In this document: positions 6,627 to 34,950 of the stretch, piece after piece
Layout of the letters: each line of letters starts with the position of its first letter
Numbering within the stretch: the stretch's first letter is position 1
Assembly (NCBI GenBank): GCA_964554125.1
Contig: CAZKNG010000004.1
Location: forward strand, 672 to 64,671
Direction of reading: 5' to 3'
From: an uncultured bacterium
GTDB lineage: Bacteria; Krumholzibacteriota; Krumholzibacteriia; Krumholzibacteriales; WJIX01
DNA length: 64,000 nt
The notes under the pieces: model-generated
Told to the model about the DNA's origin: nothing
What the model saw: only the letters and a program-made list of their open reading frames with translations
Database searches by the model: none
Position numbers and translations under genes: made by a program

Positions 6627-8018
6627 ATGAGTGGTCTTTTCGGTGTAGTTTCCAGCGATAGTTGTTCTGAATATCTGCTTTATGGAACGGATTATCATTC
6701 TCATCTCGGCAATGAATTCGGAGGAGCGGCGGTTTTAGGGGAAACTTTTCACCGGCAAATCCACGATATAAGTGACAGCCAGTTCAAATCGAAATTCGAT
6801 AAGGATATTATGGAAATGAGGGGGAAGATGGGAATAGGGGTCGTGAGCGCTGTTGATGAGCAACCTGTATATATGAATTCCAGGTTTGGTCCTTTCTGTC
6901 TCATAATGGATGGAATTATCAATAATTCCCGGGAGCTTGCCTCGGCGCTTCTTGACCGTGGAATCAGTTTCAGTGAAGTAGGGAAGGGTTATGTGAATCT
7001 CGCGGAGCTTACTGCTAAATTGATAACGCAGGGTGACAGCATTGTCAGCGGTATCGAAAAGATGTTCGATCAGATAAACGGTTCCTGTTCACTTCTCCTG
7101 CTGCATAGAGACGGAATCTATGCCGCCAGAGACAGGCACGGGCATTCCTCCCTGGCCGTTGGGAGAAACGGCGATTCTTGGGCGCTGGCTTCTGAAACAT
7201 CCTCCTTTCCCAACCTCAATTTTGAAGGTGAGAAGTTCTTAAGGCCCGGTGAGATCGTTTTGATAAATGAAAAAGGGCTTACGCGGAAAAAGAAGGGTTC
7301 CGACAAAAACCAGATTTGCGCCTTCTTGTGGGTATATACGGGGTTTCCGACTAGCAGGTATGAAGGTATAAATGTTGAGACAGTCAGAGAAAAATGCGGC
7401 AGATTTCTGGCAAAGAGGGATCGTGATATCGATGTGGATGTTGTCGCGGGTGTTCCTGATTCGGGGATTGGCCACGCGGTAGGATACGCTATTGAATCGA
7501 ATAAGCCCTACAGAAGGCCTCTGGTAAAATATACTCCCGGATACGGGCGGAGTTATATTCCCAGTTCACAGAATATGCGGGATCATATCGCCAGAATGAA
7601 ATTGATTCCCAATGAATCTATAATTAGAGGAAACAGAATTGTTATTTGTGAAGATTCGATAGTGAGAGGAACTCAGCTGAAAAATTATACTATCAGGAAG
7701 CTGTGGTCCGCCGGAGCTGAGGAGATCCACGTCAGAGTTGCCTGTCCTCCTCTTATCTTTCCGTGTAAATTCAATTTTTCAACCCGGAGTATCGGCGAAC
7801 TCGCGGCCCGAAGGGCTATAAGAGCAATTGAAGGAGCTGATGTCGGGGATGTCTCAGAATATGTGGATCACACAACAGAGAAGTACGCGGAGATGATAGA
7901 ATGGATAAGAAAGGATCTGAAAGTGACGACTCTGAGATATCAGACGATCGATGATATGATAGAATCGACAGGTATGCCGAGGGGAAAATTGTGTCTGAAC
8001 TGCTGGAACGGTGAATGA
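6627..8018 (+). CDS. PurF-like class-II amidotransferase / PRTase paralog lacking the N-terminal catalytic Cys (Ser2)
   Basis: N-terminus MSGLFGV compared with canonical MCGI. PRTase motif (VICEDSIVRGTQL) and a PurF-like C-terminal region (CPPLIFPCKF). The canonical purF is at 49147. Confidence 0.6.
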   Translation: MSGLFGVVSSDSCSEYLLYGTDYHSHLGNEFGGAAVLGETFHRQIHDISDSQFKSKFDKDIMEMRGKMGIGVVSAVDEQPVYMNSRFGPFCLIMDGIINNSRELASALLDRGISFSEVGKGYVNLAELTAKLITQGDSIVSGIEKMFDQINGSCSLLLLHRDGIYAARDRHGHSSLAVGRNGDSWALASETSSFPNLNFEGEKFLRPGEIVLINEKGLTRKKKGSDKNQICAFLWVYTGFPTSRYEGINVETVREKCGRFLAKRDRDIDVDVVAGVPDSGIGHAVGYAIESNKPYRRPLVKYTPGYGRSYIPSSQNMRDHIARMKLIPNESIIRGNRIVICEDSIVRGTQLKNYTIRKLWSAGAEEIHVRVACPPLIFPCKFNFSTRSIGELAARRAIRAIEGADVGDVSEYVDHTTEKYAEMIEWIRKDLKVTTLRYQTIDDMIESTGMPRGKLCLNCWNGE

Positions 8019-8078
8019 TCGGGCCGCGGCGGATAGCATATAAAAATCACAGGATTTAAGTTAGATCGCACCCGGAGA

Positions 8079-8864
8079 TTAAACTTCTTCATCATACTCG
8101 GTGAGTATCCCGGCAACGGCATTTGCCTGATCATCCGCCCCGGCGACAAGTATTATCCTTTTTATCGATTCAGTTTCCTGAGATTTTATCGTTTCAAGCA
8201 ATGCTATCACCGCTCGGTGATTATTTGTTTCTTCTAAATTCTTCCATATGACCGGAATCGTTACGGTAGCAGAATCGAGTTTGTCAGCAAGTTCGAGAAC
8301 CTTCGAAAAAGCCGATTTAATCGATTCATCAGAATGATAACCGGCAGAGTCTTCAGGTAGGACTGCATGGATTATGTAGCGGCATGTCAAATTTCCGGAG
8401 GTTGTAGAGATCGGCTTTTCAATCGTTATCGGAGATTTTGAAGCTGCTTCTTTTTCTATATCATTTCCGCCTTTATTTTTAATGGCGGCCCCCGGGCCTT
8501 CAGACATAGTTCCGTCCGGTGAGGCTGGATTTATAATGGCGTCTGAGAAGAAATCTGTAATTTCTCCCACCCGCACGGAAACGTCGATCTTTCCTATACT
8601 GGACATATAGACATTTTTCTCCATGGCTATTCCGGCCAGTATTACATCCGGCTTTTTTCTGAAATCGCCGATGAGCCTCTTGCCTTCTCCGGCTACAAAA
8701 CCCGCCGTATTGAAAACTTCTTCAGGATCGGCCCTGCCATCCTGAAAGAGATCGAGTTTTTTCCGCAGAGGATTTATCAACTCACCGCATTTGGATATTT
8801 TCAGGTTTCTGATAAACTCTTTTTTGCGAATTTCCCGTTCATCATCGGTGTCATCAAATAACAT
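8079..8864 (-). CDS. Macro-domain (ADP-ribose / Appr-1''-p processing) protein with ~90 aa N-terminal extension
   Basis: Macro-domain Gly-rich block (DAIINPASPDG...GPGAAIKNKGG). Confidence 0.5.
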   Translation of the reverse strand: MLFDDTDDEREIRKKEFIRNLKISKCGELINPLRKKLDLFQDGRADPEEVFNTAGFVAGEGKRLIGDFRKKPDVILAGIAMEKNVYMSSIGKIDVSVRVGEITDFFSDAIINPASPDGTMSEGPGAAIKNKGGNDIEKEAASKSPITIEKPISTTSGNLTCRYIIHAVLPEDSAGYHSDESIKSAFSKVLELADKLDSATVTIPVIWKNLEETNNHRAVIALLETIKSQETESIKRIILVAGADDQANAVAGILTEYDEEV

Positions 8865-8981
8865 TGTTTCTCCCTTCTCCAGTTAAGGTATAAGGCAGAA
8901 GCCGATTATTTTCCAGCAGAAAACAGCTGAAAATTATATATATTTTAAATTCTGCCTTTGATAACAGCGGCTTCGCGGATT

Positions 8982-9758
8982 TTATTGCCCGGGATTTATC
9001 TCTCCGGAGTCTTCTTTCTTTTTCGTAAGTCTGCTGAAAATAATGTACGAAGGCACTGAAAGAATAATCCCCAGAGTAATTCCAGCCGCCACGTCAAGAG
9101 GCCAGTGTACTCCAACATAGATTCTCGAGAAGGAAACTGTTGCCGCGATCAGAAGGAGAGGGGCGAGAAGTTTTCTGTAGACGAGACCGAGAAACAGCAT
9201 GGAAGTTGTTATATTAGCCGCGTGTCCGGACGGAAATGAGAAGGATGATTTATATCCTCTGACCGCTTCAAAAGATGTGGTAATCCATCCTGAGCTCCCG
9301 CTCCAGAAACGCGCGCCGCCCAGCACTTCGCAGGGACGCGATCTTTGAAAGAGGGGTTTCATAATTCCACTGGATATCTGATCAGATGCTACCAGAAGGG
9401 GTATGAGCGCGAGAGCAGCCCATTTCCCTTTCGGCCCTCCGAATATTACAAGAGCTGACCATGAAAGTAGAATAATAATCTTAGACCTGTCAAAATCGGT
9501 AATAACAGGCATAACGGTATCAAATGCACGGTTGGCGAGGCGCGTATTAATAAACCGGAAGATCCTAGTGTCGTAAGATGATTCGTTCTGGAATTTATGC
9601 CAGGCTGCCCCCGAAAGAGAATCTGTATCTGCCGCGCGGGGAGTCGGCGCGCTGGAGGAAGCTGCCGGCAGCATAGCCAGGACGATGAATATCAGGAATG
9701 TCTGCCGGATTCTTTCTTTTGCCATAGCGGTACGGTTTTTCCTAAGATAATAATTCAA
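8982..9758 (-). CDS. PAP2-family phosphatase (undecaprenyl-diphosphatase-like), signal peptide
   Basis: PAP2 motifs KPLFQRSRP, SFPSGH and RIYVGVHWPLDV. Start may instead be the ATG at 9725 (MAKERIRQ). Confidence 0.7.
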   Translation of the reverse strand: MNYYLRKNRTAMAKERIRQTFLIFIVLAMLPAASSSAPTPRAADTDSLSGAAWHKFQNESSYDTRIFRFINTRLANRAFDTVMPVITDFDRSKIIILLSWSALVIFGGPKGKWAALALIPLLVASDQISSGIMKPLFQRSRPCEVLGGARFWSGSSGWITTSFEAVRGYKSSFSFPSGHAANITTSMLFLGLVYRKLLAPLLLIAATVSFSRIYVGVHWPLDVAAGITLGIILSVPSYIIFSRLTKKKEDSGEINPGQ

Positions 9759-9898
9759 AAGGAAGTGTTCTGATCCTGCCGCCCGGAAAGTGCAATAGAC
9801 AGAATCAGAACTCCTCTGAAATCAGTTTACAATTCCTATCAGCAGGTGGTTTCGTCTATGCTTCTATGCCGCTGATACTTTTTCGCTTATGCCTGTTA

Positions 9899-10432
9899 CT
9901 AAAATGAGAAACCGCCGGAAATAGTGAAATATTTAGTTGTGCCGTCATCAAATATTATATTAAGGGCTGGTTTGATCTCCCATATTCTTGATTCAGACTG
10001 ATCGATTATTATTCCGCCGCCTAATCTCATCCCAAGATTCATTTCCGAATCATCATCAAAAGCGAAGCGGTAAAAGCCGATCCCCGCCTGTCCGAAATAT
10101 TTATTTGTGCTGCCTGTCGAATCACTTTGTGAAAAGAGATATCTCGCCTGGGGAATAAATTCCATTATCGAAGCTGAACCGTTGCCTTCATCGACTCCCC
10201 ACCTGTTGTAGGCGATCCTTCCTCCCAGGAGTATATTGTCCGTATGTGGGATAAAACCGTCCAGGCCGAAGCATATTCCGGTATTTAAATAATCGCCCGC
10301 ATCGCCGAAAGGTATTGATAGTCCTGCATTGGCGTTAAATTCGATTTGTTCCATAATGCTGTCCGCAGCCAGAGTTGACGCAGGCAGAATAATAATAACG
10401 GCGATCATCAGCAACGCACTTTTATGAATCAT
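9899..10432 (-). CDS. Outer-membrane beta-barrel protein (OmpW/OmpA-like small barrel)
   Basis: Signal peptide. Alternating hydrophobic beta-strand pattern. C-terminal aromatic residue (..GGFSF). Confidence 0.5.
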   Translation of the reverse strand: MIHKSALLMIAVIIILPASTLAADSIMEQIEFNANAGLSIPFGDAGDYLNTGICFGLDGFIPHTDNILLGGRIAYNRWGVDEGNGSASIMEFIPQARYLFSQSDSTGSTNKYFGQAGIGFYRFAFDDDSEMNLGMRLGGGIIIDQSESRIWEIKPALNIIFDDGTTKYFTISGGFSF

Positions 10433-10797
10433 CTTTTTCCCTCCCTTTTGCTCGCACTCTTGTCCGGATAAGAAGTTTCCCCAAGCTTCCTCAAATTAAG
10501 TTGTAGTACAGGGTGCCACGGATTAAAGGAAAAAACAAGTATTCTTTTTTCCTTTCAATCTTACCCCGGACAGGCCCTCAGGGCGGTGAGAAGTTGACCC
10601 TATAAAAGCTTCTGTTTAGCTTGTCTAATGAGAAAAAATCAAATTCAAGCTTCCGGCGCGAACATAAAAAGTGAGAACTCAGAGATATAGTTACAGTGAA
10701 TGTGAAGAATCCGGTTGGAGAACGGTGTAATATTAATTAGAATATATCCTGTAGGTTCTTTAGAACGTAATTAAACAGCCGGGCAGGGAAGTTAAAT

Positions 10798-12519
10798 ATG
10801 TTACCTCCTCTTTTACCTTCGGTAGTGAGACATTTTGTTTACCCTTTTTATAGAGGGTATAGAAAAGACAGGGTCCTTTCTATTCTGAGCGATTTGGAGG
10901 ATAATCAGTGGCTCGGAAAAGAACAGATAGAAGAGATACAATGGAGGAAGCTCAAGAAGCTGTTGAGTTACGTTTCCATCCATGTTCCCTATTACAGGGA
11001 TCTCTTCAGTAACAGGGGAATAGAACCCGATGAGATAGAAAGCCCCGCTGATTTTAAGAATATACCGTATCTGACAAGAAATGTTATTACAAAGAGCAGC
11101 CGTGATCTTATTACAGGAGATCCGCTGATGAAGGGATATGCTTCGAGTACCGGCGGGTCTAACGGTGACCCTCTCTATTTCTACTGTGATCTTGCGGCCG
11201 GTCCCGTCCGCCGTGCCAACACAATCAGGCAGTTCCGCTATGCCGGTATTGATATTGGCGACAGGCAGCTGCGGCTTATGGGAGATCAGCTGGATAGAAC
11301 ATGGAAGGAAAACGCCGCGGCGAAGGTAAAAGATTACTTCAATAATATTAAATTCCTGTCATCGTTTGATATGTCAGACGAAGCGATGAAAGAGTATATC
11401 TATGTTGAACACTTTTTTAAACCCTCTGTTATTGTAGCCTACCCTTCAGCTCTTGCTCTTCTGGCTCATTTTTGTAAGAGGAGGGCTTTGAAGGTTTTTA
11501 AACCGAAAGCCGTTGTTACAAGCGGGGAAATGCTGTACCCGGAGCAGAGGAAGATAATCGAAGAGGTCTTTTCCGCCCCTGTTTTCAACAGATACGGAAC
11601 CAGTCAGTTTTCCAATGTAGCCAGCGAATGTAAACAGCATAAGGGGTTGCATGTAGCGAGTGATCTCTTCTTCGTCGAAGTAATTAACAATAGCGGGAAA
11701 CCGGCTGAAGCGGGCGAAAAGGGGGAGCTGGTCATTACAGACCTGTCTAACTTTTACATGCCCTTTATAAGATATAGAACCGGAGATTATGCGGTTCCGG
11801 CAGGAAGAATTTGTGACTGCGGAATAGGTCTGCCTCTCCTTGAAAGGATTGAAGGACGCAGCTTAAATACTATCAGAACTGCTGAAGGCAAATCTGTCGG
11901 GGGTGCTTTCTGGACTAGACTTTCGAGAACAGTGCCGGGGATAAAGAGATTTCAAATTGAGCAGAAGGGTCTAAACAGCATCAATTACAGAATTGTTACC
12001 GGTCCCGGGTGGAAAGTTGAATTTAAAGATATCCTTGATAGAAAGATCAAGTCATACTGCGGAGATAATTTAAACATTACCTTTCTTGAAGTTGATGACA
12101 TTCCTCTTACACCCTCGGGGAAATCCAGGTTTATTATTCCTGATACCGAAGAAAAACTTGTCATTAAATCCAAGATACACAAGGCAAATATCACCTCGGC
12201 AGAACCTGATATGAATGACTGTCTGTGTATAGACGAAAAACTCATGGAGCTTGCCGATATTTCCGAATATGAAAAGATCCTCATCGTTGATGCCACAAAT
12301 GGAGTCCGTCTCGAAACATTCGCCGTGAAGGCCCCCAGAGATAAAGGTGATATTAAAGCCTGCGGAGCGGTCGCGGGAAAAGTTAACCCGGGGGATGAAA
12401 TAGGTGTAATGGCGTTTACATGGGCGAAGGAAAACGAGGTTGATTTCAGTAATATTCTCGTTGATAAGAGGAACAGGTTCTTACGTTATCTTACAGAATT
12501 TCCAGGGCATAAAATATGA
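10798..12519 (+). CDS. PaaK/CapK-type adenylate-forming ligase fused to a C-terminal degenerate PanD-like (aspartate decarboxylase fold) domain
   Basis: ANL/PaaK motifs SSTGGSNGDP, GELVITDL and YRTGD. The C-terminal ~115 aa align along their whole length with the PanD ORF downstream: KSKIHKA, ILIVDATNGVRLETF, GAVAG, GVMAFTW. Confidence 0.65.
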   Translation: MLPPLLPSVVRHFVYPFYRGYRKDRVLSILSDLEDNQWLGKEQIEEIQWRKLKKLLSYVSIHVPYYRDLFSNRGIEPDEIESPADFKNIPYLTRNVITKSSRDLITGDPLMKGYASSTGGSNGDPLYFYCDLAAGPVRRANTIRQFRYAGIDIGDRQLRLMGDQLDRTWKENAAAKVKDYFNNIKFLSSFDMSDEAMKEYIYVEHFFKPSVIVAYPSALALLAHFCKRRALKVFKPKAVVTSGEMLYPEQRKIIEEVFSAPVFNRYGTSQFSNVASECKQHKGLHVASDLFFVEVINNSGKPAEAGEKGELVITDLSNFYMPFIRYRTGDYAVPAGRICDCGIGLPLLERIEGRSLNTIRTAEGKSVGGAFWTRLSRTVPGIKRFQIEQKGLNSINYRIVTGPGWKVEFKDILDRKIKSYCGDNLNITFLEVDDIPLTPSGKSRFIIPDTEEKLVIKSKIHKANITSAEPDMNDCLCIDEKLMELADISEYEKILIVDATNGVRLETFAVKAPRDKGDIKACGAVAGKVNPGDEIGVMAFTWAKENEVDFSNILVDKRNRFLRYLTEFPGHKI

Positions 12520-12686
12520 TATATCTGTCCGGCGCTTTTAAAGATGCCGGAGATAAACTTTTTCCTCCGGCTTAATAATCAATAGTCTGTCCGGCATTAT
12601 TAATCCTTACTTTCCCTTTGATTTTATGGATAATTTGATATATTTATATCTGTACGCGATCGAAACCGCAAAGATGTGAGTATGTC

Positions 12687-13046
12687 ATGAAACGTATGTT
12701 TTTAAAATCTATGATTCTGAAAGCGAAGGTCACTCAAGCCGATCTTCGTTATGTGGGAAGCATTACGATCGATGAAGATCTTGTTGAGAAAGCGAATCTG
12801 AGTGAAAATGAGAATGTATTGATCGTTGACAAAACAAATGGAAACAGACTCCAGACCTATATAATAATCGGTGAGAGAGGCTCTGGAGTAATTTGCATCA
12901 ACGGTGCCGCGGCTCACCTTGTAGATGAAGGTGACATTGTTGATATCATGGCATTTTCCTGGACCACGGGTGAAGCTCAATCACTCTTTATAAAATTGGA
13001 TGAGAATAATCATTTTTCCAGGTATGTCAAAACGGGTGAGCGCTGA
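12687..13046 (+). CDS. panD: Aspartate 1-decarboxylase proenzyme PanD
   Basis: Canonical PanD: Lys9, His11, the Gly-Ser self-cleavage site (YVGSITID), Arg54, Thr57, Tyr58 (RLQTY), and GAAAHL. Confidence 0.85.
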
Positions 13047-13077
13047 CCCTTCCTACGGTTTCTCAGAAAGGGAATGA

Positions 13078-14214
13078 ATGTTCAAAAGAAGCCTGCGCCT
13101 CTTTGAGCTATGGGGCATCCCGGTGGAAATTCATATCAGCTGGATTCTTATCTTCATACTTGTAACATGGAGCTTTGCCACCGGTGTTTATCCCGAGTCC
13201 TACGGCGGGACTTTCTCTTCCACTCAGTTATGGATCATCTCTTTTCTGACAGCTGTTCTTTTATTCCTGTCGATACTTCTTCATGAGTTCAGTCATTCTG
13301 TTGTTGCTATCCGAAATGGTCTTCCCATCGGGAAAATTACATTATTTATGTTCGGAGGCGTAGCTCAGATGCGCCGTGAGGTTGAAAGTCCTTCCGTGGA
13401 ACTCAAGATGGCCTCGGCGGGACCCGCGATGACCCTTGTGCTTATAGGTGTTTATTACCTTCTGGGCGTAATTTTCAGATCATTCGACACCCTTTTCGTG
13501 TTGTTCAATTCACTCGCGTTTATAAACGGAGCGATTCTTGTTTTCAATATGATTCCGGGATTTCCACTTGACGGCGGAAGAATACTGAGGGCGGTTATCT
13601 GGCGTAAGACAGGCAATCTTCTCAGAGCAACAAAAACAGCCAGCCGGATTGGAAAGGGTTTCGCCTTTTTCCTGATAGGTATGGGCATTATCAGTTTTCT
13701 GGTTAAGGGTAATCTTATAGACGGCATCTGGCTGATGATAATCGGCACTTTTCTGAGACAAGCCGCCGAAAGAAGCTACAAAGCCGTTATTTACCGGGAG
13801 GTCATGGAGAGATTCAAGGTTTCGGATATAGTAAGATATGATGTCGTGACAGTCGGATTGTCAGTTGATCTGCGGACACTTGTCGAGGATTATTTCAAAA
13901 AGCACCCCTTTCAATCTTTTCCCGTAGTGGAGGATGGGGTTCTGGTGGGAATAATCAGACTCGATGATGTTAAGAAGGTCGAGAGAGGAAAGTGGCCTGA
14001 AATAAAGACGGCGGATTTAGTAAACAGGAATATTTCAGATTACGCGATCCGGGCTTTTGATAATGCCGGAAAACTTCTCCGTCTTATACAAGAAAAAAAG
14101 TACGATTCTTTTCCGGTAATCGATGATTATGGAAGATTTACCGGCATTGTAACGAGGAGCGATTTCGAAGAAGCGGTAAGAGTTATGACTTCCATTAGAA
14201 ATTTGCCGGATTAG
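13078..14214 (+). CDS. Site-2 protease family (M50) zinc metalloprotease with C-terminal CBS pair
   Basis: HEFSH zinc motif in TM helix 2. Multiple TM helices. LDG motif (FPLDGGRIL). C-terminal tandem CBS domains. Confidence 0.75.
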   Translation: MFKRSLRLFELWGIPVEIHISWILIFILVTWSFATGVYPESYGGTFSSTQLWIISFLTAVLLFLSILLHEFSHSVVAIRNGLPIGKITLFMFGGVAQMRREVESPSVELKMASAGPAMTLVLIGVYYLLGVIFRSFDTLFVLFNSLAFINGAILVFNMIPGFPLDGGRILRAVIWRKTGNLLRATKTASRIGKGFAFFLIGMGIISFLVKGNLIDGIWLMIIGTFLRQAAERSYKAVIYREVMERFKVSDIVRYDVVTVGLSVDLRTLVEDYFKKHPFQSFPVVEDGVLVGIIRLDDVKKVERGKWPEIKTADLVNRNISDYAIRAFDNAGKLLRLIQEKKYDSFPVIDDYGRFTGIVTRSDFEEAVRVMTSIRNLPD

Positions 14215-14225
14215 TTTAGATAAAG

Positions 14226-16064
14226 CTATATCATCCCTGAATCGGTGTAGTTTTCTATTGAGCTTGAAGAGCTGCTCAGGTCTTCGATGATCGATGTGAG
14301 TGTAAACAGGTGATCAAAGCCGAACTTGCCCAGTTTCCCGGTGTTTTCTGAAATTCCGCCGAGCGACAGATATTCGCCGATTGAATGGCAGTTTTGAATC
14401 TGGCGGTTGAAGCATTCTACTATCTTTGAATTCTTCCCATACGGTCCTATTACATCGTTGGTCTGTTTTACCTTATTTCTTAACAACTTTTTCAGAGACG
14501 CGGGGAGGATGTAATACAATTCTCTCGCGTAAAGATATAACAGATATTTTTTAGAAGATATATCGAACCCCCAGTTGGCGTTACGGACAGCGGATGCTTC
14601 AGGTGAAAGTTTGAGCAGGAACTCCCGGTAGAGTTTGTATTTTGCTTTATGCTTATCCGGGCAATTCATGACAAAGTTAAAGAAGTGTATGGAATTAAAA
14701 GGCGAGACAGTCCAGAAGTAGAATCTGTTGCGGTCTTCTCCCTCAGATGTCCACTTCAGATTACGCTGATTGATTATAAAATGAACGTATTTTCCGTCCA
14801 TCCCTCTCTCGGGATACGCCGCGAGTTCTTCTCTTATTTCAGCTATAATATCATTTTCCCTGATCCCCGTGACAGCGGCTGTAATATCAAGTGGAACGAC
14901 ATGGTTCGTCTTGATAATAAACCGGGTCAATTCGTGTGTGTCTTTGAGTTTCTTAAAAGGTCTGGAATCGGGGATTATTAATCCCCCGCCCTCTCCGGTG
15001 AAATATGTAATTCTGTCTCCCCATTCGGTCCGTATCGCGTTGAAATAGGGTATGGAAAAACTCATTCCCAGGAAATTCATTCCATTCTTCATTCTGAGAA
15101 GTTTTAGAACCTCCTCTCCCGTAGCCTGTCCGATTTCAAAGAGTTTCCAGTCGAAATTCAGGACTTCGGATAATTCCCTCGCGATATCAATATCCTTCGC
15201 CGCTGTTTTATAGTAGTCGAGGAAGGTGGCGCCCGAGAAATCGATATCGATCCCTGTAAGGGCGGAGGCGACTGCTCTGGAATCCAGCCCGCCGCTCTGG
15301 GTGATTATATTCTTATCTACGGGGTCAGCCATTTTACCGCACATATCTGAGAAGATGGCAACCATCCGGTCAGCGGATTCACCTACACTGAGCCCGCGAT
15401 TGTTTTTCGAATCGTAATTGAAATTATAAAGTGTTTCTATTGAAACTCTATCCGATTTTCCATCTGATCTGATCACAGAAGCGGGCGGGAGGCGGAAGGT
15501 GTTTTTTAGCAGCGTTCTTCTTCCAAGGGGGAATCCCAGAAGCAGAAATTGAGAGGATCCGGTTCTATCGAAACCTGTTCCACCGGAGAAATGATGGATG
15601 AATCTGAGTTCTCTTGAGACTGTTAGTGTTCCCGCGTCTTCATTCCAGTATAGCGGAAGGCGTCCCAGAGCGTCATTTAGTATCCACAAAGAAGATGATT
15701 TCCGATGAAGTATGAATATTATAAAATCTCCATTTGTATCCATAAGCCACCGAGTGATCTTTTCTCTTGAGCTGCCGGAATTTTCTATAAACAGTTTGAC
15801 GAGTTTTCTGATCTCAGAAGAGATCTCCGAATGAGTTTTCCCGTATATCTTTCCCTCAAGGCAGATAAAGTATTCGCCATTCTCTATGACCGTCACCGGA
15901 TATTTCGCGTGACTCGTGCAGCATAGGAAATATCTGTCATCTTCGAGCAGTATATTCCGTTCGATCCATTTTTCGTGTATAACCGAATCCAGAGCTTTCA
16001 AGCTCTGCGCCTTTCTTTTTTTCAGCCCTCCGACGGGCTTATAGATAAAACTTATTCCAGGCAT
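14226..16064 (-). CDS. Asparagine-synthetase-like amidotransferase lacking catalytic Cys (Pro2); PP-loop intact
   Basis: N-terminus MPGISFIY compared with canonical MCGI. PP-loop SGGLDS present. 612 aa with an AsnB-type two-domain layout. Confidence 0.65.
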   Translation of the reverse strand: MPGISFIYKPVGGLKKRKAQSLKALDSVIHEKWIERNILLEDDRYFLCCTSHAKYPVTVIENGEYFICLEGKIYGKTHSEISSEIRKLVKLFIENSGSSREKITRWLMDTNGDFIIFILHRKSSSLWILNDALGRLPLYWNEDAGTLTVSRELRFIHHFSGGTGFDRTGSSQFLLLGFPLGRRTLLKNTFRLPPASVIRSDGKSDRVSIETLYNFNYDSKNNRGLSVGESADRMVAIFSDMCGKMADPVDKNIITQSGGLDSRAVASALTGIDIDFSGATFLDYYKTAAKDIDIARELSEVLNFDWKLFEIGQATGEEVLKLLRMKNGMNFLGMSFSIPYFNAIRTEWGDRITYFTGEGGGLIIPDSRPFKKLKDTHELTRFIIKTNHVVPLDITAAVTGIRENDIIAEIREELAAYPERGMDGKYVHFIINQRNLKWTSEGEDRNRFYFWTVSPFNSIHFFNFVMNCPDKHKAKYKLYREFLLKLSPEASAVRNANWGFDISSKKYLLYLYARELYYILPASLKKLLRNKVKQTNDVIGPYGKNSKIVECFNRQIQNCHSIGEYLSLGGISENTGKLGKFGFDHLFTLTSIIEDLSSSSSSIENYTDSGMI

Positions 16065-16282
16065 GGTAATTTCTCCGTGATAATCCTGCTGAGATTACAT
16101 GTCGATTAAGGAGACGCTCTAAGCGAATTTTACAGGTCCCGGGAGATATTGCAATAGTATTCTGCCGGTGAATGATGTGGAAACTATCGCTTGGCACGAG
16201 TTTGAAGAACCCGGGGGCGCGGCCGATCTGCCAGCAAGGCATCTCTAAGCTGTAAAGCATCTGACTCTACTGAAGGGTATGA

Positions 16283-16912
16283 TCATTTCTGTTCTCTGAG
16301 TCTATCTATTTCACTTATCTGTTGGCCTGTGAGTCTGTCAGCGCCTCCAAGAAGCTCTGTGAAAAGGGTCGTTCGCGCCGCCGCCTCGAGCACTTCGATT
16401 TTGCTGAAGGCCTCTTCAAGAGTCAGCCCAAGACAGACAGGTCCGTGATTCCTCATCATTATTACATCACTGCCTGCCGCGGCTTCGGAGACAGCGGAGG
16501 CAAGTTTTTCTGACCCCATAAGAGCATAAGGAACATTGGCTATCTGTCCCAGTATAAATCGTGATTCACCTGTGAAATCTGTCTTTATCTCTATGTTGGA
16601 TGCCGACAGGATGGTTGCCCACGGGGGATGAGCGTGAACAACGGCTCTGATATCATCGCGGCGATTATAGATTTTAAGGTGAAGGGAGGTTTCCATGCTG
16701 GGTGTAAGGTCACCTGAAAGATTTTTACCGTCTGTTGAAACTTCACAAATATTTTCGGCCGTGAGTCTTCCCTTGTCGAGCCCCGATGGAGTAACGAGGA
16801 TCGAGTTCGCGCCGTTTCTCAGGCTGATATTGCCTCCGCGCGCCGTTGTAAGTTCTCGCGCGTAGAGACGGTTTACAAAGTAGGCTATCTCTTCTTTTTT
16901 TCCTGATTCCAT
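16283..16912 (-). CDS. Class II aldolase/adducin-family protein (fuculose-P aldolase / MtnB-like)
   Basis: NISLR, VTPSG and HAHPPWATILS metal-binding His motifs. Confidence 0.7.
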   Translation of the reverse strand: MESGKKEEIAYFVNRLYARELTTARGGNISLRNGANSILVTPSGLDKGRLTAENICEVSTDGKNLSGDLTPSMETSLHLKIYNRRDDIRAVVHAHPPWATILSASNIEIKTDFTGESRFILGQIANVPYALMGSEKLASAVSEAAAGSDVIMMRNHGPVCLGLTLEEAFSKIEVLEAAARTTLFTELLGGADRLTGQQISEIDRLREQK

Positions 16913-17040: not shown

Positions 17041-18186
17041 ATGAAATATCTGGTGATTACAACATCGCTCTTAATGTTGATGATATCAACATCTGTTTCT
17101 TCACCCGGCAGGGAGCAGTCAACAGGAAAGACAAGGGAGCCCGTAGATACTGTCGGATACGCTGTTACCCCTTCGCAGACCGCAGCGGTTATGAATTTAT
17201 GTGATTCAATTGAAAAGGCCCGGTGTTTGAAGAATGAGAGGGCACATCCTGTAATGTCCGGAGGGGAGTTGATCGCGGCGATCTGCCCGCATGACGATTA
17301 TCTGTATGCCGCTCCCGTTTATTTTCACGTGATGAGAGAAATTACGGCCCCTGTGATTTTAATGATCGGCGTTTCCCATCATGCCAGACATAAGGGGATA
17401 GAGGGAAGATTGATTTTTGATGATTTTAAAAGCTGGAAAGGTCCCTATGGGAAGGTGAGGGTTTCCAGTCTCAGGGATGATATTATTGAGGCCCTTCCTG
17501 AGGAGATTGTTATGGTTGACGGCGATATTCACGCGAAGGAACATTCTCTCGAGGCTTTTCTGCCCTTTCTGCAGCATTCGGAGTTCTCTGATAGAAATAA
17601 AGCCCTGGAGAGGAGAGATTATTCTTTTCCGAGGATTATTCCCATTCTTGTTACCAGATTTAAGGGGGAGTCGCAGGGGGAAGCAGCCGGCCGGCTTGCC
17701 TCCGTTCTGAGAAAAGAGATGAAAGAGAGGGATTGGATTCTGGGAAAAGACCTTCAGGTTCTTATTTCAGCCGATTGCGTGCACTATGGAGATAAAAAAT
17801 GGGGCGGGCGCAATTACGCGCCTTTCGGGACGGATGCCAAAGGGTATGAGAAGGCCTTGAAACAGGAAATGAAGATAATAGATTCATCCTTAACAGGTGT
17901 AATAGATGACGGGAAAATAGATCGATTCAGATCTCTGGTTGAGAGAGATGACCCGGAGTGGCCCTATAAAATACCGTGGTGCGGGGTTTATTCGATCCCT
18001 TTCGGTTTGAGTGCCGCCAGAAGATTATGTGAACTTGCCGGCCGCGAAGCCCCGGAGGGATTTTTGTTAAAATATCAGACCAGCCTGGAGCCTGGGAAGA
18101 TCAGCCCTGAAGCGGAGGGACTTGGAGTAACAAACATTAATACCCTTCATCATTGGGTTGGATACGCGGCTGTCGGTTACTGGTAA
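17041..18186 (+). CDS. MEMO1-family protein with N-terminal signal peptide / extension
   Basis: Memo-like motifs (ICPHDDYLYAAPVYFHV, GVSHH). The hydrophobic N-terminus suggests export. Confidence 0.55.
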   Translation: MKYLVITTSLLMLMISTSVSSPGREQSTGKTREPVDTVGYAVTPSQTAAVMNLCDSIEKARCLKNERAHPVMSGGELIAAICPHDDYLYAAPVYFHVMREITAPVILMIGVSHHARHKGIEGRLIFDDFKSWKGPYGKVRVSSLRDDIIEALPEEIVMVDGDIHAKEHSLEAFLPFLQHSEFSDRNKALERRDYSFPRIIPILVTRFKGESQGEAAGRLASVLRKEMKERDWILGKDLQVLISADCVHYGDKKWGGRNYAPFGTDAKGYEKALKQEMKIIDSSLTGVIDDGKIDRFRSLVERDDPEWPYKIPWCGVYSIPFGLSAARRLCELAGREAPEGFLLKYQTSLEPGKISPEAEGLGVTNINTLHHWVGYAAVGYW

Positions 18187-31999: not shown

Positions 32000-33664
32000 A
32001 TGTTTACCAGACGGATTGCTTGTTACGCGGTAATAGCGGTTGTTGCTGCTGTTCTTCTCTGCGCTTTATCCTGCGGGAGGGAAGATCAGGGGGAAATCGA
32101 AAGGGCCGATGTGGAAAGGGCGGGGAAGTTAACAGGACTTGAATTTACGGTTTCTGAGATAGATTCCATGCTGGAGGATTTAACCGCCAATCTCCATTCC
32201 TATCGTAAGTTCAGAGAGGCGCGGATATCAAACGCGGTCCCGCCCGCGCTGCTCTTTAACCCTGTTCCGGCAGGAGCGGAGTTTGAAGGGAAGGAAAGCG
32301 GCTTGAAATTCAGCCCCGCCGAAGATGTAGAGGTCCCGGAGGATCTCGAAAAACTCTCCTTCTGCTCAGTGCGCCAGCTGGCCGGATTGATACGAGAGCG
32401 CAGGATAACTTCAACAGAGCTTACCAGGATGTATATATCGAGATTGAAGCGGTACGGCCCGGAGCTTAAATGTGTTATCACACTGACAGAAGAGCTGGCT
32501 TTAAAGCAGGCCGGGCGGGCTGACCGCGAGATAGCGGAAGGCAATTACCGGGGGGTTCTTCACGGTATTCCTTACGGAGTCAAAGATCTTTTTTCTGTGA
32601 AGGGGTATAAAACTACCTGGGGAGCTATGCCCTACAGGGATCAGGTGATAGATGAGAATGCCGCAGTTATAGATAAGCTTAATAAAGCGGGAGCTGTCCT
32701 GGTCGCGAAACTTACCCTGGGCGCCCTCGCCTGGGGAGATGTGTGGTACGGCGGGAAGACGCTTAATCCCTGGAATCTGGAGGAAGGATCGAGCGGATCT
32801 TCCGCGGGCCCGGCTTCGGCCGCGGCCGCAGGACTTGTCGCGTTTTCAATAGGAACGGAGACGTGGGGGTCTATAGTATCACCCTCGACGCGATGCGGTG
32901 TAACAGGGCTGCGCCCCACATTCGGAAGGGTCAGCCGCTCCGGGGCGATGGCGCTGAGCTGGTCGATGGATAAGATAGGCCCGATATGCAGATATGTCGA
33001 AGACTGCGCTGTCGTTTTCGACGCCATTCGCGGCCCGGCCGGAAATGACGCTGCGGCGGTCGATCTTCCCTTCAATTACAATTATGATATCGATCTTGAG
33101 GATATGAGGATAGGATATCTTAAAGGGCTCTTCGAAAGTGATTACCGGCAGAAGGAAACAGATGCCGCCGCATTGAGAAAGATGCGTGAGCTCGGCGCCG
33201 AATTGATACCGGTGGAACTGCCGGATTTTCCGGTAGAGAGCATGTCTTTTATTCTGAATGCCGAAGCCGCCGCCGCTTTCGACCGGCTTACCCGCTCCGG
33301 AGAGGACGACATGATGGTAAGACAGGGCAGAAACGCGTGGCCCAATGTGTTCAGAGCCTCGCGGCTGATCCCCGCGGTTGAATATATCCGGGCGAACCGC
33401 GTGCGGTATAAGCTCATTCAGGAGATGGAAGATATGGATGTGGATCTGTATCTCGCGCCTTCTTTCGGCGGGAATAACCTTCTTCTCACTAATCTGACCG
33501 GGCATCCGTGCGTGGTGGTCCCTAACGGCTTTGACAGCGGTGGAGATCCGGTCAGCATAAGTTTTATAGGCAAACTCTTCGAAGAGGGTAAACTTATGGC
33601 AGTGGCAAAGAAGTATCAGGACGCGGCGGGGTTCAAAGATAAGCATCCTCCTCTCTTTCGCTGA
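32000..33664 (+). CDS. Amidase-signature family amidase, lipoprotein signal
   Basis: Lipobox LSC. Amidase-signature Gly/Ser-rich block (GGSSGSSAGPASAAAAG...GTETWGSI). Confidence 0.75.
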   Translation: MFTRRIACYAVIAVVAAVLLCALSCGREDQGEIERADVERAGKLTGLEFTVSEIDSMLEDLTANLHSYRKFREARISNAVPPALLFNPVPAGAEFEGKESGLKFSPAEDVEVPEDLEKLSFCSVRQLAGLIRERRITSTELTRMYISRLKRYGPELKCVITLTEELALKQAGRADREIAEGNYRGVLHGIPYGVKDLFSVKGYKTTWGAMPYRDQVIDENAAVIDKLNKAGAVLVAKLTLGALAWGDVWYGGKTLNPWNLEEGSSGSSAGPASAAAAGLVAFSIGTETWGSIVSPSTRCGVTGLRPTFGRVSRSGAMALSWSMDKIGPICRYVEDCAVVFDAIRGPAGNDAAAVDLPFNYNYDIDLEDMRIGYLKGLFESDYRQKETDAAALRKMRELGAELIPVELPDFPVESMSFILNAEAAAAFDRLTRSGEDDMMVRQGRNAWPNVFRASRLIPAVEYIRANRVRYKLIQEMEDMDVDLYLAPSFGGNNLLLTNLTGHPCVVVPNGFDSGGDPVSISFIGKLFEEGKLMAVAKKYQDAAGFKDKHPPLFR

Positions 33665-33788
33665 GGCTTTTTTGCAAAACACGGCGGAAAAGCGATTAAT
33701 ACTTTTAAAAGCAGGCGTAAAATCTTATTATTTCATAGTTGACTTATAAGACCTTTTGCCGCGGCGGGTTTTCCCGGCCGGAGAAGCT

Positions 33789-34130
33789 ATGAGAATACTT
33801 AGAAAGCCTGTAAAGATAGATGAATTGAAAAAAATCGCCGCGGATACATTCGGTGATATGGTCAAGGCTGTCGTCGATGTACGTCTGGGGCTTATCGTGA
33901 TTGACGCCGAACTGCATTCTGATCAGGAAGCGTTGCTGATAGCAAACGGTTCCGGTCAGAAAGATCTGTGGGGTATAAATTTCTACCCTTACCTGGAAGG
34001 CGATGATTTTGTCGAATTCGATTCTATGATCAACATGCGTCCTTCCGGGGGGAACATGAGCCGAGGAGTGGATGATCCTTCGGTACGAAAAGCGATTCTC
34101 AAAATAGTAGACAGATGGGTAAAGAGATGA
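33789..34130 (+). CDS. Small conserved hypothetical protein (DUF-type, ~113 aa)
   Basis: No motif recognised. Its 3' end overlaps the next ORF by 4-16 nt. Confidence 0.4.
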   Translation: MRILRKPVKIDELKKIAADTFGDMVKAVVDVRLGLIVIDAELHSDQEALLIANGSGQKDLWGINFYPYLEGDDFVEFDSMINMRPSGGNMSRGVDDPSVRKAILKIVDRWVKR

Positions 34131-34453
34131 ATTACCGGCATAAAGACCTTGCTTCGGGAAGATGGCGGGAATTATCTCTTTCTACGCAGTTGGCCAATAT
34201 CGGCAGTGAAGTCAGCCGCGCGCTCAACTGGCGGAAGAAGGAGAATGGGGAATACTCCAGGCGGGCCGCCGCGAGAGCCCTTGAACTGCTTGATTTGAGT
34301 CTCGGTTCCACCAGGTCGTTTCCGAGGCTCAAGGAGCTGGCCCGTCTGCGCGAAGCCGTAGTTGATTACTTCTACGGGACCAACCAGTTCTCATCCTCTG
34401 AAGAGTTGTGGAGGAAATACTTTGACCATTTTAATTTCGCCGCGCGGAAATAA
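34127..34453 (+). CDS. Small hypothetical protein (~108 aa), Arg-rich, helical
   Basis: Translationally coupled to the upstream small ORF. Sits directly upstream of umuD. Confidence 0.35.
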   Translation: MNYRHKDLASGRWRELSLSTQLANIGSEVSRALNWRKKENGEYSRRAAARALELLDLSLGSTRSFPRLKELARLREAVVDYFYGTNQFSSSEELWRKYFDHFNFAARK

Positions 34454-34948: not shown

Positions 34949-34950
34949 CC

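Follow-up and report, generated by a model that had tools for sequence, protein, structure and literature searches.

Reciprocally degenerate PanD-type sequences, one of them fused to a PaaK-type ligase, in a Krumholzibacteriota gene neighbourhood

Genes of the stretch

The window, i.e., the whole 64-kb stretch of DNA that was analysed, is a MAG contig of Candidatus Krumholzibacteriaceae. Nine open reading frames lie between positions 6627 and 16912, and an ORF check confirmed all of them at the coordinates first assigned, as well as their strand layout (+/---/+++/--). A PurF-like gene on the forward strand (6627–8018; GATase_7 plus PRTase) is followed by three reverse-strand genes, which encode a Macro-domain protein (8079–8864), a PAP2 protein (8982–9758) and a 177-aa protein (9899–10432). 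Three forward-strand genes come next: a fusion that joins a C-terminal Asp_decarbox domain to a PaaK-type ligase (10798–12519), a small PanD of 119 aa (12687–13046; TIGR00223), and a membrane metalloprotease of the site-2 protease type that carries two CBS domains (13078–14214; Pfam Peptidase_M50 and CBS), hereafter M50/CBS. The last two genes, AsnB-like (14226–16064) and Aldolase_II (16283–16912), are again on the reverse strand. Pfam and NCBIfam reproduced the domain calls of the preliminary description for the PurF-like, Macro, PAP2, fusion (PaaK-type ligase plus Asp_decarbox), small PanD, M50/CBS, AsnB-like and Aldolase_II proteins. The Cys-less N-termini reported for two of them are also real, since the PurF-like protein begins MSGLFG and the AsnB-like protein begins MPGISF.

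The Macro protein does carry an N-terminal extension, of ~90 aa, that is shared with a 41%-identical ortholog (L008). The PAP2 protein, described earlier as a secreted phosphatase, has the PAP2 domain but is a membrane protein. The 177-aa protein matches no Pfam family even at a threshold of E ≤ 5; its assignment as a small outer-membrane beta-barrel is plausible from just two features, a signal-peptide-like N-terminus and the C-terminal ...GGFSF.

Conservation of the neighbourhood

It had been proposed that 6627–16912 as a whole is a single modification/biosynthetic locus for the synthesis and export of a beta-alanyl- or amide-decorated product, with the Cys-less PurF-like and AsnB-like proteins, a dead PanD domain, PAP2 and an outer-membrane protein all taking part. 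Every domain that this idea calls for is present. To assess linkage, we considered 29 species-level loci with the ligase–PanD fusion and a range of ±10 kb around it. Genes for the PurF-like, Macro and AsnB-like proteins were found within this range at none of the 29 loci, while aldolase II was found at five, PAP2 at eight and the 177-aa protein at two. Where PAP2 recurs, in 8 of the 29 species, it lies 6–9 kb upstream of the fusion, which favours a single locus, as does the presence of distant AsnB-like genes (24–27% identity) near CapK-like ligases that lack the PanD-like domain, in 4 of 50 polysaccharide-type loci. However, AsnB-like homologs elsewhere occupy unrelated gene contexts, and in the complete genome CP070727.1 the PurF-like gene and the fusion are separated by ~20 kb. 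A sister genome with ~92% nucleotide identity shares the backbone of the stretch but has no Macro gene, and its AsnB-like gene has been cleanly deleted, leaving a ~40-nt relic of the 3′ end. The strand changes along the stretch, and the association of the PurF-like family with purM and carB (see below), also argue against a single locus. With most of the set scattered in relatives, this idea is largely refuted by synteny, and we give it almost no credence.

The stretch is instead a set of several independent genes juxtaposed around one functional unit. Of the genes around the unit, PAP2, the 177-aa protein, aldolase II and Memo belong to the backbone, and Macro and AsnB-like are accessory and dispensable.

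The PurF-like gene

The PurF-like protein was previously considered a degenerate paralog. The catalytic-position Cys is indeed absent, but Ser in place of Cys1 is the norm of a huge conserved family, not a sign of local decay. This family has >8000 homologs with a mean column identity of 77%. Of 121 N-termini, nearly all are MSG, the few exceptions being MNG, MGG or mis-called starts, and Ser2 is near-invariant (at least 90%) in a 26-sequence alignment. Against TIGR01134 the protein scores 193 bits, with a cut-off of 350. The commonest neighbours of the gene are purM (downstream, 11/52 loci) and carB (upstream, 6/29). Because the Ser1 family is so large and conserved, and because of these neighbours, the PurF-like protein is probably the lineage's housekeeping variant of the purine-pathway PRPP amidotransferase. 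Cys-less PurF paralogs are known from archaea (PurF′, e.g., Mlab_0150, with Ser for Cys; Brown et al. 2011, PMC3261824), and E. coli PurF with C1S or C1A substitutions is reported to lose glutamine-dependent activity while retaining ammonia-dependent activity (PMC3261824). Archaeal PurF′ and the protein described here both lack the N-terminal Cys nucleophile. Unlike PurF′, however, the family described here is bacterial, enormous, extremely conserved and often followed by purM, and in these respects it resembles a primary enzyme, not a spare paralog.

The fusion and the small PanD

The functional unit consists of the fusion gene and the small PanD gene, possibly with the M50/CBS gene as a third member. 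The small PanD is directly downstream of the fusion in 24 of 27 evaluable loci; the three fusions without an adjacent PanD are at L022, L026 and L032. By contrast, none of 50 CapK-like ligases lacking the PanD-like domain has a PanD beside it, and nor does a domain-less ligase that is 53% identical. The M50/CBS gene starts 32 bp past the PanD gene on the same strand, and in 16 of 24 evaluable species loci it is the next gene after the pair. Members of the large fusion family have a constant length of 573 aa and occur in Krumholzibacteriota and Latescibacterota. All fusion-bearing genomes are from one or two related phyla, in which even unrelated neighbours (a Band7 cluster, AKR, an S9 peptidase) are syntenic, so adjacency counts for less than usual.

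Reciprocal degeneracy of the two PanD-type sequences

PanD (PF02261/TIGR00223) is a pyruvoyl-dependent homotetramer, and the known PanDs are, to our knowledge, all homo-oligomers. [quoted passage not shown] Lys9, His11, Tyr22, Gly24, Ser25, Arg54, Thr57 and Tyr58 are strictly conserved among aspartate decarboxylases; Tyr58 is the proton donor, and Lys9* and Arg54* are donated by the other subunit (PMC3314653). Both PanD-type sequences described here have the fold signature of this family, but neither has the full conserved set.

The fused domain is a PanD-like double-psi barrel at residues 455–573 of the fusion (12160–12519, forward strand), with a Pfam Asp_decarbox score of 86.6 bits and an alignment to PDB 2c45. 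It was thought to be dead, but only half of it is. Lys9 and His11 (KSKIHKA, 12166–12186), Arg54 and Thr57 are retained, whereas Gly24-Ser25 is replaced by Asp-Cys (NDCLCID, 12214–12234), Tyr58 by Phe (RLETFA, 12307–12324) and Asn72 by Cys (ACGAVA, 12358–12375). Across the family of fused domains (n = 90), Lys9, His11 and Arg54 are present in all 90 sequences. Position 24 is Asp in 87 and Glu in 3; position 25 is Cys in 68, Gly in 15 and Ser in 7; and Tyr58 is replaced by Phe in 80. Judged by these residues, the fused domain cannot form a pyruvoyl group and has no Tyr58 to donate a proton.

The small PanD scores above the TIGR00223 equivalog cut-off (127 versus 106 bits) and had been taken for a canonical enzyme, which it is not. 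A gapless alignment to the M. tuberculosis and E. coli PanDs reveals Met in place of Lys9 and Leu in place of His11 (KSMILKA, 12705–12725, forward strand). Tyr22, the self-processing site Gly24-Ser25 (VGSITID, 12753–12773), Arg54, Thr57 and Tyr58 (RLQTYI, 12846–12863), and Asn72 (INGAAA, 12897–12914) are all retained. All 24 fusion-adjacent orthologs have Met9 together with Leu, Met or Ile at position 11. Some gene callers choose Met9 as the start codon, giving a 111-aa protein from which residues 1–8 are removed. Among 150 PanD representatives clustered at 50% identity and drawn from 1.84 billion proteins, 136 have Lys9/His11, and only two have Met9 with an intact N-terminus: the cluster that comprises the fusion-adjacent clade (P0381) and one further representative (P0382).

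Thus, the fused domain alone has Lys9/His11, and the small protein alone has the pyruvoyl site and Tyr58. The earlier description of "binding-only" or "ammonia-only" paralogs is too simple, since the two sequences resemble complementary halves of one enzyme. Each lacks the active-site half that the other retains, and they probably function only as a pair. Because Lys9 and Arg54 come from the neighbouring subunit, and because the losses are reciprocal, our prediction is that the two proteins form a heteromeric decarboxylase whose active sites are composite.

Alternatively, there may be no heteromer, with the small PanD forming an ordinary homotetramer despite Met9/Leu11 and the fused domain acting as an aspartate/beta-alanine-binding or scaffold part. 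The carboxylate-binding residues Arg54 and Thr57 of the fused domain are consistent with such a role, as is the equivalog-level score of the small PanD. We found no published data on PanD K9 mutants in the literature consulted, and the Met9 protein might therefore be active as a homotetramer. Nonetheless, we consider this alternative unlikely: the losses are exactly complementary across a known subunit interface; a domain that could not form its own pyruvoyl group has Lys9/His11 without exception (90/90); Met9 is as rare among PanD representatives as described above; and ligases without the domain never have a PanD beside them.

The ligase domain and its glycan context

The ligase domain, of the PaaK/CapK family of adenylate-forming enzymes, spans residues 1–447 of the fusion (10798–12138, forward strand) and appears active from its motifs: SSTGGSNGDP (11143–11172), YRTGD (11773–11787) and PSGK (12112–12123). 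Across 30 homologs, the residues of the ANL motifs are invariant or nearly so. Residues 448–454 (12139–12159) form a predicted flexible linker. In an AlphaFold2 model of the fusion (pLDDT 85), they are the only interdomain segment of the three with pLDDT <50, the others being 120–122 and the C-terminal 569–573. The top Foldseek matches are BT_0428, PaaK1/2, HCL, NatL2, AjiA1 and ClxA, of which NatL2, AjiA1 and ClxA are direct ester- or amide-forming ligases, not CoA ligases. The NCBIfam and PDB sequence matches are to PaaK-type ligases, and equivalog cut-offs are never reached (PaaK, 75 versus 646; the best, the DVU_1553 family, 136 versus 300). A precomputed assignment places the domain in PF27533 (CapK_C). 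The fusion ligase thus shares its fold, domain order and ANL motifs (P-loop, YRTGD, C-terminal SGK lysine) with the PaaK/CapK family (COG1541; PF27533), which includes phenylacetate-CoA ligase, NatL2, AjiA1 and ClxA, and it may be a CoA ligase. It differs in its sub-cut-off equivalog scores and in the extra PanD-like domain; we know of no characterised PaaK/CapK member with such a C-terminal domain.

In other species, the fusion is often preceded by glycan genes. In 12/26 loci the gene immediately upstream encodes a CE4 deacetylase, and in 13/24 a GT4 glycosyltransferase is encoded within 3 kb upstream; in about half of species, CE4/GT4 lie ahead of the fusion in the same orientation. The CE4 protein has TFDDG and HxxxH motifs and no signal peptide, and it matches the PgaB deacetylase domain best. 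The best match of GT4 is the PEP-CTERM EPS glycosyltransferase TIGR03088 (stp2), with a score below the cut-off. Some fusion copies lie beside Wzx or within full EPS clusters, and a second fusion copy, without PanD, is inside a complete EPS cluster. The closest domain-less ligases occur together with CE4, GT4 and Wzx at polysaccharide loci. The window and its closest relatives have no CE4 or upstream GT4 within 64 kb, so the link to glycans rests on other species. The suggestion that an adenylating ligase and a beta-alanine generator act on an envelope glycoconjugate fails for the whole stretch but holds up for the smaller fusion/PanD unit, given the 24/27 adjacency, the upstream CE4/GT4 and the EPS/Wzx contexts.

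Two alternatives bear on this context. First, the pair could serve pantothenate/CoA metabolism, with the ligase domain as either a pantothenate synthetase analogue, adenylating pantoate or another acid and joining it to beta-alanine, or a PanZ-like, CoA-sensing regulator of PanD. The fusion-adjacent PanD is the sole PanD in these loci, no glycan gene directly flanks the pair in the window, and PanC chemistry (acyl-adenylate plus beta-alanine giving an amide) is within reach of an ANL ligase. There is also a precedent for control, in that PMC4410942 and PMC3473359 describe enterobacterial PanZ (PanM) as a partner whose binding governs, in a CoA-dependent manner, both the activation of PanD and how active it is. 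PanZ thus resembles the fusion in its predicted role as a partner of PanD. It is, however, a protein of the GNAT fold that binds acetyl-CoA and not a paralog of PanD, and the active site of E. coli PanD, unlike that of the small PanD, is complete. We regard a role in pantothenate metabolism as quite doubtful: panB, panC and panE are beside the pair in none of the loci with Pfam calls, and the same-strand CE4/GT4, the PanD-less fusion copy in an EPS cluster, and the polysaccharide loci of the closest domain-less ligases all point elsewhere.

Second, GT4, a cytoplasmic deacetylase and the ligase could make a small soluble glycoside or glycolipid by the logic of bacillithiol (BshA/B/C) or mycothiol (MshA/B/C) synthesis, with beta-alanine added to a GlcN-aglycone and not to a polysaccharide. 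Most species have GT4 and CE4 alone before the fusion, in an operon without flippase, polymerase or exporter; the CE4 is cytoplasmic; and GT4 has secondary matches to BshA (101–115 bits) and MshA. These scores are far below the cut-offs, however, and the best GT4 match is EPS-type. Moreover, BshB and MshB are deacetylases of the LmbE family, not CE4, and several fusion copies are in or beside Wzx/EPS clusters. We consider such a product very unlikely.

Proposed mechanism and comparison with known systems

We favour, with about even confidence, a model in which a heteromeric decarboxylase with composite active sites supplies beta-alanine to a sugar-modifying ligase, the other genes of the stretch being mostly unrelated. 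From the residue patterns, the small PanD and the fusion would form a mixed oligomer with complete active sites solely at small-PanD/fusion interfaces. Beta-alanine formation would then depend on the ligase protein and take place beside it. The ligase would adenylate a carboxylate, most simply beta-alanine itself, and then form an amide. The acceptor is likely a de-N-acetylated amino sugar of a cytoplasmic glycan or glycolipid intermediate, because CE4 without a signal peptide and GT4 directly precede the fusion elsewhere, and because domain-less relatives share the CE4/GT4 pair. Gene association thus points to a reaction that is probably N-acylation of the de-acetylated amino sugar with beta-alanine.

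PEP-CTERM/XrtA EPS loci encode an AMP-dependent ligase, an amino-acid decarboxylase, a polysaccharide deacetylase, an AsnB-like amidotransferase and GT4 transferases (TIGRFAM descriptions), and they share the logic of ligase, decarboxylase, deacetylase and GT4 with the unit. The decarboxylase of the unit is a pyruvoyl PanD, whereas theirs depends on PLP. The fusion loci showed no exosortase or PEP-CTERM genes, and only the stp2 GT4 and eps_aminotran_1 models of this type were matched, all below cut-offs.

The pair also resembles prozymes, such as those of trypanosomatid S-adenosylmethionine decarboxylase (also a pyruvoyl enzyme), with its dead paralog, and of the deoxyhypusine synthase heterotetramers. 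As in those systems, an impaired enzyme has a dead paralog as its partner, and only the hetero-oligomer is expected to be active. The pair differs in that the predicted complementation is direct, by active-site residues across the interface rather than allosteric; in the fusion of its dead paralog to a downstream enzyme; and in being bacterial.

Gene content of the region

Nine genes lie between positions 6627 and 16912; every ORF coordinate of the preliminary description was reproduced, and so, in Pfam and NCBIfam searches, were its domain assignments. The genes encode a PurF-like protein (6627–8018, forward strand); a protein with a Macro domain after an extension of ~90 aa (8079–8864, reverse); a PAP2 protein (8982–9758, reverse); a 177-aa protein without a family match (9899–10432, reverse); a PaaK-type ligase with a C-terminal Asp_decarbox domain, referred to here as the fusion (10798–12519, forward); a separate, small PanD (12687–13046, forward); an M50 protease with two CBS domains (13078–14214, forward); an AsnB-like protein (14226–16064, reverse); and a class II aldolase (16283–16912, reverse). 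The window is a contig of a Candidatus Krumholzibacteriaceae metagenome-assembled genome, and its exact protein sequences are also present in NCBI (HMA76813, HMA75773 and others). Scanning the window for Rfam families and tRNAs returned nothing, and Pfam searches to E ≤ 5 gave no informative match for the N-terminal extension of the Macro protein or for the 177-aa protein, which is thus only a putative outer-membrane barrel. PADLOC models gave 0 matches to the nine proteins at E ≤ 0.01; a role in anti-phage defence for the AsnB-like and Macro proteins, some of whose homologs lie near HNH, helicase or AbiEii genes, was therefore dropped.

Conservation of gene linkage

These nine genes had been described as a single modification/biosynthetic locus. 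Using the fusion, the most distinctive protein of the stretch, as the anchor, we scanned one genome per GTDB species, which gave ~30 loci with the full fusion and 50 loci with CapK-like ligases that are ~35% identical to it and have no PanD-like domain (“domain-less” ligases). The window proteins were mapped onto all scanned loci, with the neighborhood taken as 10 kb on either side of the fusion. The PurF-like, Macro, and AsnB-like genes were each found near the fusion at 0 of 29 loci, the gene for the 177-aa protein at two of 29, and the class II aldolase gene at five of 29. PAP2 was found at eight of 29, always 6–9 kb away, on the opposite strand, and beyond a Band7 gene cluster. In CP070727.1, a complete genome, ~20 kb separates the PurF-like gene from the fusion. 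The sister genome GCA_034520215.1 has the same backbone, with ~92% nucleotide identity over the whole region, and lacks the Macro and AsnB-like genes (see below). Because of these absences and losses, most of the gene set counts as scattered in close relatives. A single pathway spanning the entire 10-kb stretch, which the synteny contradicts, is largely refuted, and the nine-gene locus interpretation is wrong.

Only two genes accompany the fusion. The small PanD is directly downstream of it at 24 of 27 evaluable loci, a count based on sequences read individually, and the M50/CBS protease follows the small PanD at 16 of 24. This grouping of three persists even between species in which the fusions share only ~50% identity. 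The adjacency of the protease may be functional, or it may reflect phylum-level synteny. Odd-looking paralogs listed within 10 kb are not evidence for a locus; synteny cut nine genes to two or three. The accompanying idea, that a beta-alanine generator and an adenylating ligase act on an envelope glycoconjugate, survives for this two-to-three-gene unit and fails for the nine genes. What the narrowed unit gains, judging from conserved residues, is an unexpected and testable feature: a putative split active site.

Reciprocal losses in two PanD-type sequences

The small PanD (119 aa) aligns without gaps to the Mycobacterium tuberculosis (PDB 2c45) and Escherichia coli enzymes and scores above the TIGR00223 equivalog cut-off (127.3 versus 106 bits). 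It keeps Tyr22, Gly24-Ser25, Arg54, Thr57, Tyr58, and Asn72, within the motifs VGSITID (which holds the Gly24-Ser25 self-processing site), RLQTYI, and INGAAA; Gly24-Ser25, Thr57, Tyr58, and Asn72 are identical in 24/24 orthologs. It is not, however, the canonical enzyme that it had been taken for: the window protein has Met9 and Leu11 instead of Lys9 and His11, and all 24 fusion-adjacent orthologs have Met9 with Leu, Met, or Ile at position 11 (KSM-I-(L/M/I)). In a wider sample, the best 150 cluster representatives (50% identity) in a 1.84-billion-protein library, 136 have Lys9/His11, and Met9 with an intact N-terminus occurs only in this clade's cluster and one other. An annotation caveat follows from the small PanD itself, which passes the equivalog model despite missing two strictly conserved residues.

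The PanD-like domain of the fusion (12160–12519) shows the opposite pattern. In the window protein, Gly24-Ser25 is replaced by Asp-Cys and Tyr58 by Phe, and the TIGR00223 score is 65 bits, below the cut-off of 106. Across 90 fused domains, Lys9, His11, and Arg54 are invariant (90/90 each) and Thr57 is kept in 83. Position 24 is Asp in 87 and Glu in three, never Gly; position 25 is Cys in 68, Gly in 15, and Ser in seven; position 58 is Phe in 80 and never Tyr; and position 72, Asn in PanD, is Cys, Ser, Gly, or Thr. The label “dead PanD” thus holds for the processing site and Tyr58, both of which are gone, but does not fit the retention of Lys9, His11, Arg54, and Thr57.

Aspartate decarboxylases strictly conserve Lys9, His11, Tyr22, Gly24, Ser25, Arg54, Thr57, and Tyr58; Lys9 and Arg54 are contributed by the neighboring subunit, with Lys9 pairing with the substrate alpha-carboxylate, and Tyr58 donates the proton (PMC3314653). 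Two subunits meet at the active site (PMC6969166). Set against this interface, the losses in the two sequences fall exactly on its opposite sides. The invariance of Lys9 and His11 in a domain without a pyruvoyl group of its own is hard to explain unless they serve an active site in trans.

We tentatively propose, as a possibility somewhat short of an even chance, that Krumholzibacteriota and Latescibacterota have an obligate two-gene aspartate decarboxylase, in which a small PanD lacking Lys9 and His11 is active only with a ligase-fused pseudo-subunit that supplies both in trans, and in which beta-alanine is channelled into amide formation with a de-N-acetylated amino sugar of a glycan or glycolipid. 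The fused domain would assemble with the small PanD into mixed oligomers. Complete sites would combine the pyruvoyl group, Thr57, Tyr58, and Asn72 of the small PanD with Lys9, His11, and Arg54 of the fusion, and the reciprocal sites would be dead. Since complete sites would form only in mixed oligomers, beta-alanine would be made only in complex with the ligase, and since the pseudo-subunit is covalently fused to that ligase, only at the ligase itself. Alternatively, there may be no heteromer: the small PanD could be an enzyme that tolerates Met9, and the fused domain could simply bind a ligand. We regard this alternative as the less likely one.

The small PanD start codon (window 12687–12713) is called differently among databases, with a 119-aa product in NCBI records and one of 111 aa, beginning at Met9, in JGI/ENA calls. 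We favor the 119-aa form because residues 1–8 (MKRxxLKS) are conserved among orthologs. In public records, the fusion carries the name “phenylacetate-CoA ligase” or “aspartate 1-decarboxylase”. A spacer of 167 bp (12520–12686) separates the small PanD gene from the fusion; it has several short CCGG-flanked inverted repeats (e.g., CCGGCGC...GCCGG and CCGGAG...CTCCGG) and no Rfam family match, and the repeats could be a terminator or attenuator, or nothing.

The ligase domain and its glycan-type neighbors

ANL enzymes have a P-loop of the pattern (S/T)(S/T)G(S/T)(S/T)G.P and a catalytic C-terminal Lys. Residues 1–447 of the fusion contain the P-loop SSTGGSNGDP, YRTGD, and a C-terminal PSGK in a two-subdomain fold, and across 30 homologs the motif residues vary little or not at all. 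Foldseek matches the fold to PaaK-family structures (E = 1e-28), and the structural neighbors include NatL2, AjiA1, and ClxA, which we take to be direct ester- or amide-forming ligases. Scores are far below the PaaK equivalog TIGR02155 (75 versus 646 bits) and the haloarchaeal PaaK model (98 versus 700). In the AF2 model, residues 448–454 form a low-confidence linker, followed by a confidently folded PanD-like domain. By its motifs and predicted fold, the fusion ligase is a competent-looking ANL enzyme. The searched literature holds only incidental mentions of CapK-type ligases in capsule loci.

The fusion family is large and of very constant length (573 aa), with members in Krumholzibacteriota, Latescibacterota, and related uncultured lineages. 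In most species outside the window's own sub-clade, a CE4 polysaccharide deacetylase (400 aa) is encoded upstream on the same strand, immediately upstream at 12 of 26 loci, and a GT4 glycosyltransferase lies within 3 kb upstream at 13 of 24. The CE4 protein has no signal peptide, begins straight at the catalytic fold, keeps the TFDDG and HxxxH motifs, and best matches the PgaB deacetylase domain; the best match of the GT4 protein is the EPS-type transferase stp2. The 64-kb window contains neither the CE4 deacetylase nor a GT4 of the upstream type, and both are also missing in the nearest relatives. Some fusion copies adjoin genes for a sulfotransferase and a Wzx flippase, and others are embedded in a complete EPS cluster (Bac_transf, Poly_export, pyruvyl transferase, CE4, and several glycosyltransferases). 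Among the domain-less CapK-like ligases, the same CE4 subfamily is found within a few kb at eight of 50 loci, and PanD is adjacent at 0 of 50; a further ligase without the domain, 53% identical, sits with CE4, GT4, and Wzx and has no PanD. From these neighbor patterns, we conclude that the ligase tracks cytoplasmic deacetylase/GT4 glycan chemistry, and PanD strictly tracks the PanD-like domain.

In the proposed pathway, the ligase would adenylate beta-alanine, or another acid that is coupled to beta-alanine, and an amide would form. The acceptor would be an amino sugar freed by CE4 on an intermediate that is cytoplasmic, linked to a nucleotide or lipid, and produced with GT4. In a variant of the same model, the product would be a small-molecule glycoside, following the logic of bacillithiol or mycothiol, rather than a decorated polymer. 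A role for the fusion–PanD pair in pantothenate/CoA metabolism, with the fusion as a PanC analogue or PanZ-like regulator, is attractive in that the chemistry fits and no other PanD was seen in these loci, but the glycan-type neighbors of the fusion and the absence of pan genes beside the pair make it disfavored.

The CE4 subfamily (390–400 aa, starting at ...VPV(V/I)MYH...) occurs, for example, at L002 8777–9979 (in CP070727.1), L042 908–2119, and L095 11991–13163, the L-numbers denoting compared loci in other genomes. It is found beside CapK-like ligases in Krumholzibacteriota, Desulfobacteraceae, Fibrobacteraceae, Flavobacteriaceae, and Bacteroidales, which suggests that the two form a widespread cytoplasmic pair that de-acetylates and then re-acylates. 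The metagenome-assembled genome JAGLYV01 has two fusion paralogs (L018 and L022), one in a CE4-fusion-PanD-M50 arrangement and the other without PanD, within a complete EPS cluster, so the small PanD may serve both paralogs in trans.

Relation to known systems

The kinds of component, PanD, PaaK/CapK ligases, CE4, and GT4, are already known; the searchable literature yielded no account of a fused PanD-like domain or of PanD as a heteromer. The nearest regulatory analogue of the fusion–PanD pair is PanD–PanZ. The nearest concept is that of “prozymes”, pairs of active and dead paralogs such as the AdoMetDC and deoxyhypusine synthase of trypanosomatids. If the proposed complementation is true, the pair would be both the first PanD to be heteromeric and the first prozyme-type pyruvoyl enzyme of bacteria to work by active-site complementation: a new build of pyruvoyl decarboxylase, in which each of two polypeptides carries a half-site and one is joined to the enzyme that consumes the product. 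It would also be a clear case of a bacterial pseudoenzyme retained for completing its paralog's active site, and a natural case of enforced substrate channelling of beta-alanine. The product would be an undescribed N-acyl (beta-alanyl) modification of an envelope glycan or glycolipid in a candidate phylum without cultured members. For enzymologists, the complementarity of PanD and the PanD-like domain would, if confirmed, be the surprise.

A widespread PurF-like family with Ser in place of Cys1

The PurF-like gene (6627–8018) is unlinked to the fusion. Its product starts MSG..., lacks the N-terminal Cys nucleophile of PurF, and scores 193 bits against TIGR01134, below the cut-off of 350. It had been considered a local degenerate paralog, a view that its homologs overturn: there are >8,000, 67–70% identical to the window protein across phyla (Omnitrophica, Latescibacteria, Bacteroidales, Firmicutes, and Patescibacteria), and nearly all share the N-terminus MSG[LI]FGV...YGTDYHSHLG, such that Ser for Cys is the norm of a huge, conserved family (mean column identity of the alignment, 77%). 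The closest solved structure is Bacillus subtilis PurF (1ao0; E = 2e-48), to which the PRPP-loop motifs EDSIVRGT, GVPDS, and GRSY align. The family shows no variation at Cys231, Cys380, Cys456, and Cys459, which are presumably the ligands of a B. subtilis-type [4Fe-4S] cluster. The glutaminase motifs are altered, with HRGQ replaced by HLGN and HNGN by MDGI.

Among 80 further metagenomic loci (L097–L176), purM (432 bits, above its cut-off) lies at most two genes downstream at 11 of 52 evaluable loci, and carB lies upstream at six of 29. These are the commonest neighbors of the PurF-like gene, yet they occur at a minority of loci, and this window has no purine-pathway neighbors of the gene. A role in NAD salvage, raised by nicotinamidase-like and QRPTase_N genes upstream in one distant contig, was rejected, as it found no support in the 80 loci. 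The most economical reading is that the protein is probably a purine-pathway variant of the PRPP amidotransferase, with a conserved Ser replacing Cys1. Many anaerobic lineages may use it as their primary PurF, in a form that depends on ammonia or has Ser as the nucleophile. Cys-less PurF paralogs were noted earlier without an assigned function, and E. coli PurF C1S was reported to retain only ammonia-dependent activity (PMC3261824). The spread, conservation, and purM adjacency of the Ser1 family raise the question of how purine synthesis starts without a Cys nucleophile in many anaerobic lineages.

AsnB-like, Macro, and other flanking genes

The AsnB-like protein (N-terminus MPG...) lacks the N-terminal Cys of asparagine synthetase B and scores 36.9 bits against TIGR01536 (cut-off, 267); the PP-loop ATP-pyrophosphatase motif SGGxDS is kept as SGGLDS at residue 257. 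Its homologs elsewhere are single genes in unrelated surroundings. Between the window and the sister genome (L009), the gene is a clean 1.95-kb presence/absence difference (window 14266–16212 versus L009 17152–17159). Because the sister genome retains ~40 nt from the 3′ end of the gene, we conclude that it was deleted there and not inserted here; an insertion or island is ruled out by the same remnant. The G+C content of the gene is an ordinary 0.44. In other relatives, the slot is held by a PAS histidine kinase.

In the sister genome, the segment with the Macro gene (window 8040–8889) is replaced by 316 unrelated bases (L009 11414–11729). CP070727.1 has an ortholog of 261 aa that is 41% identical (L008 10087–10872), although that genome is more distant than the sister. 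There, it lies two genes downstream of the PurF-like gene, after def, and PurF-like/Macro may be an old neighborhood.

Most Krumholzibacteriota have a four-gene block between PAP2 and the CE4/fusion operon (L003 4544–8086; most of L012–L036), which encodes a Band7/SPFH protein with zinc ribbons and three family-less proteins of about 230, 350, and 232 aa. The block is absent from the window and from the sister genome, which is why PAP2 and the gene for the 177-aa protein abut the fusion here.

At 17041–18186, the window encodes a Memo/AmmeMemoRadiSam-B-like protein with a signal-peptide-like N-terminus; no AMMECR1 or radical-SAM partner is nearby. This gene and the class II aldolase gene are divergently paired in several relatives (L006, L010, L011, L013, and L025). 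Further along, positions 32001–38000 have a G+C content of 0.50–0.52, versus ~0.44 in the flanks, and encode an amidase, several small ORFs, and a UmuC/DinB-type polymerase (IMS family); this may be an acquired segment.
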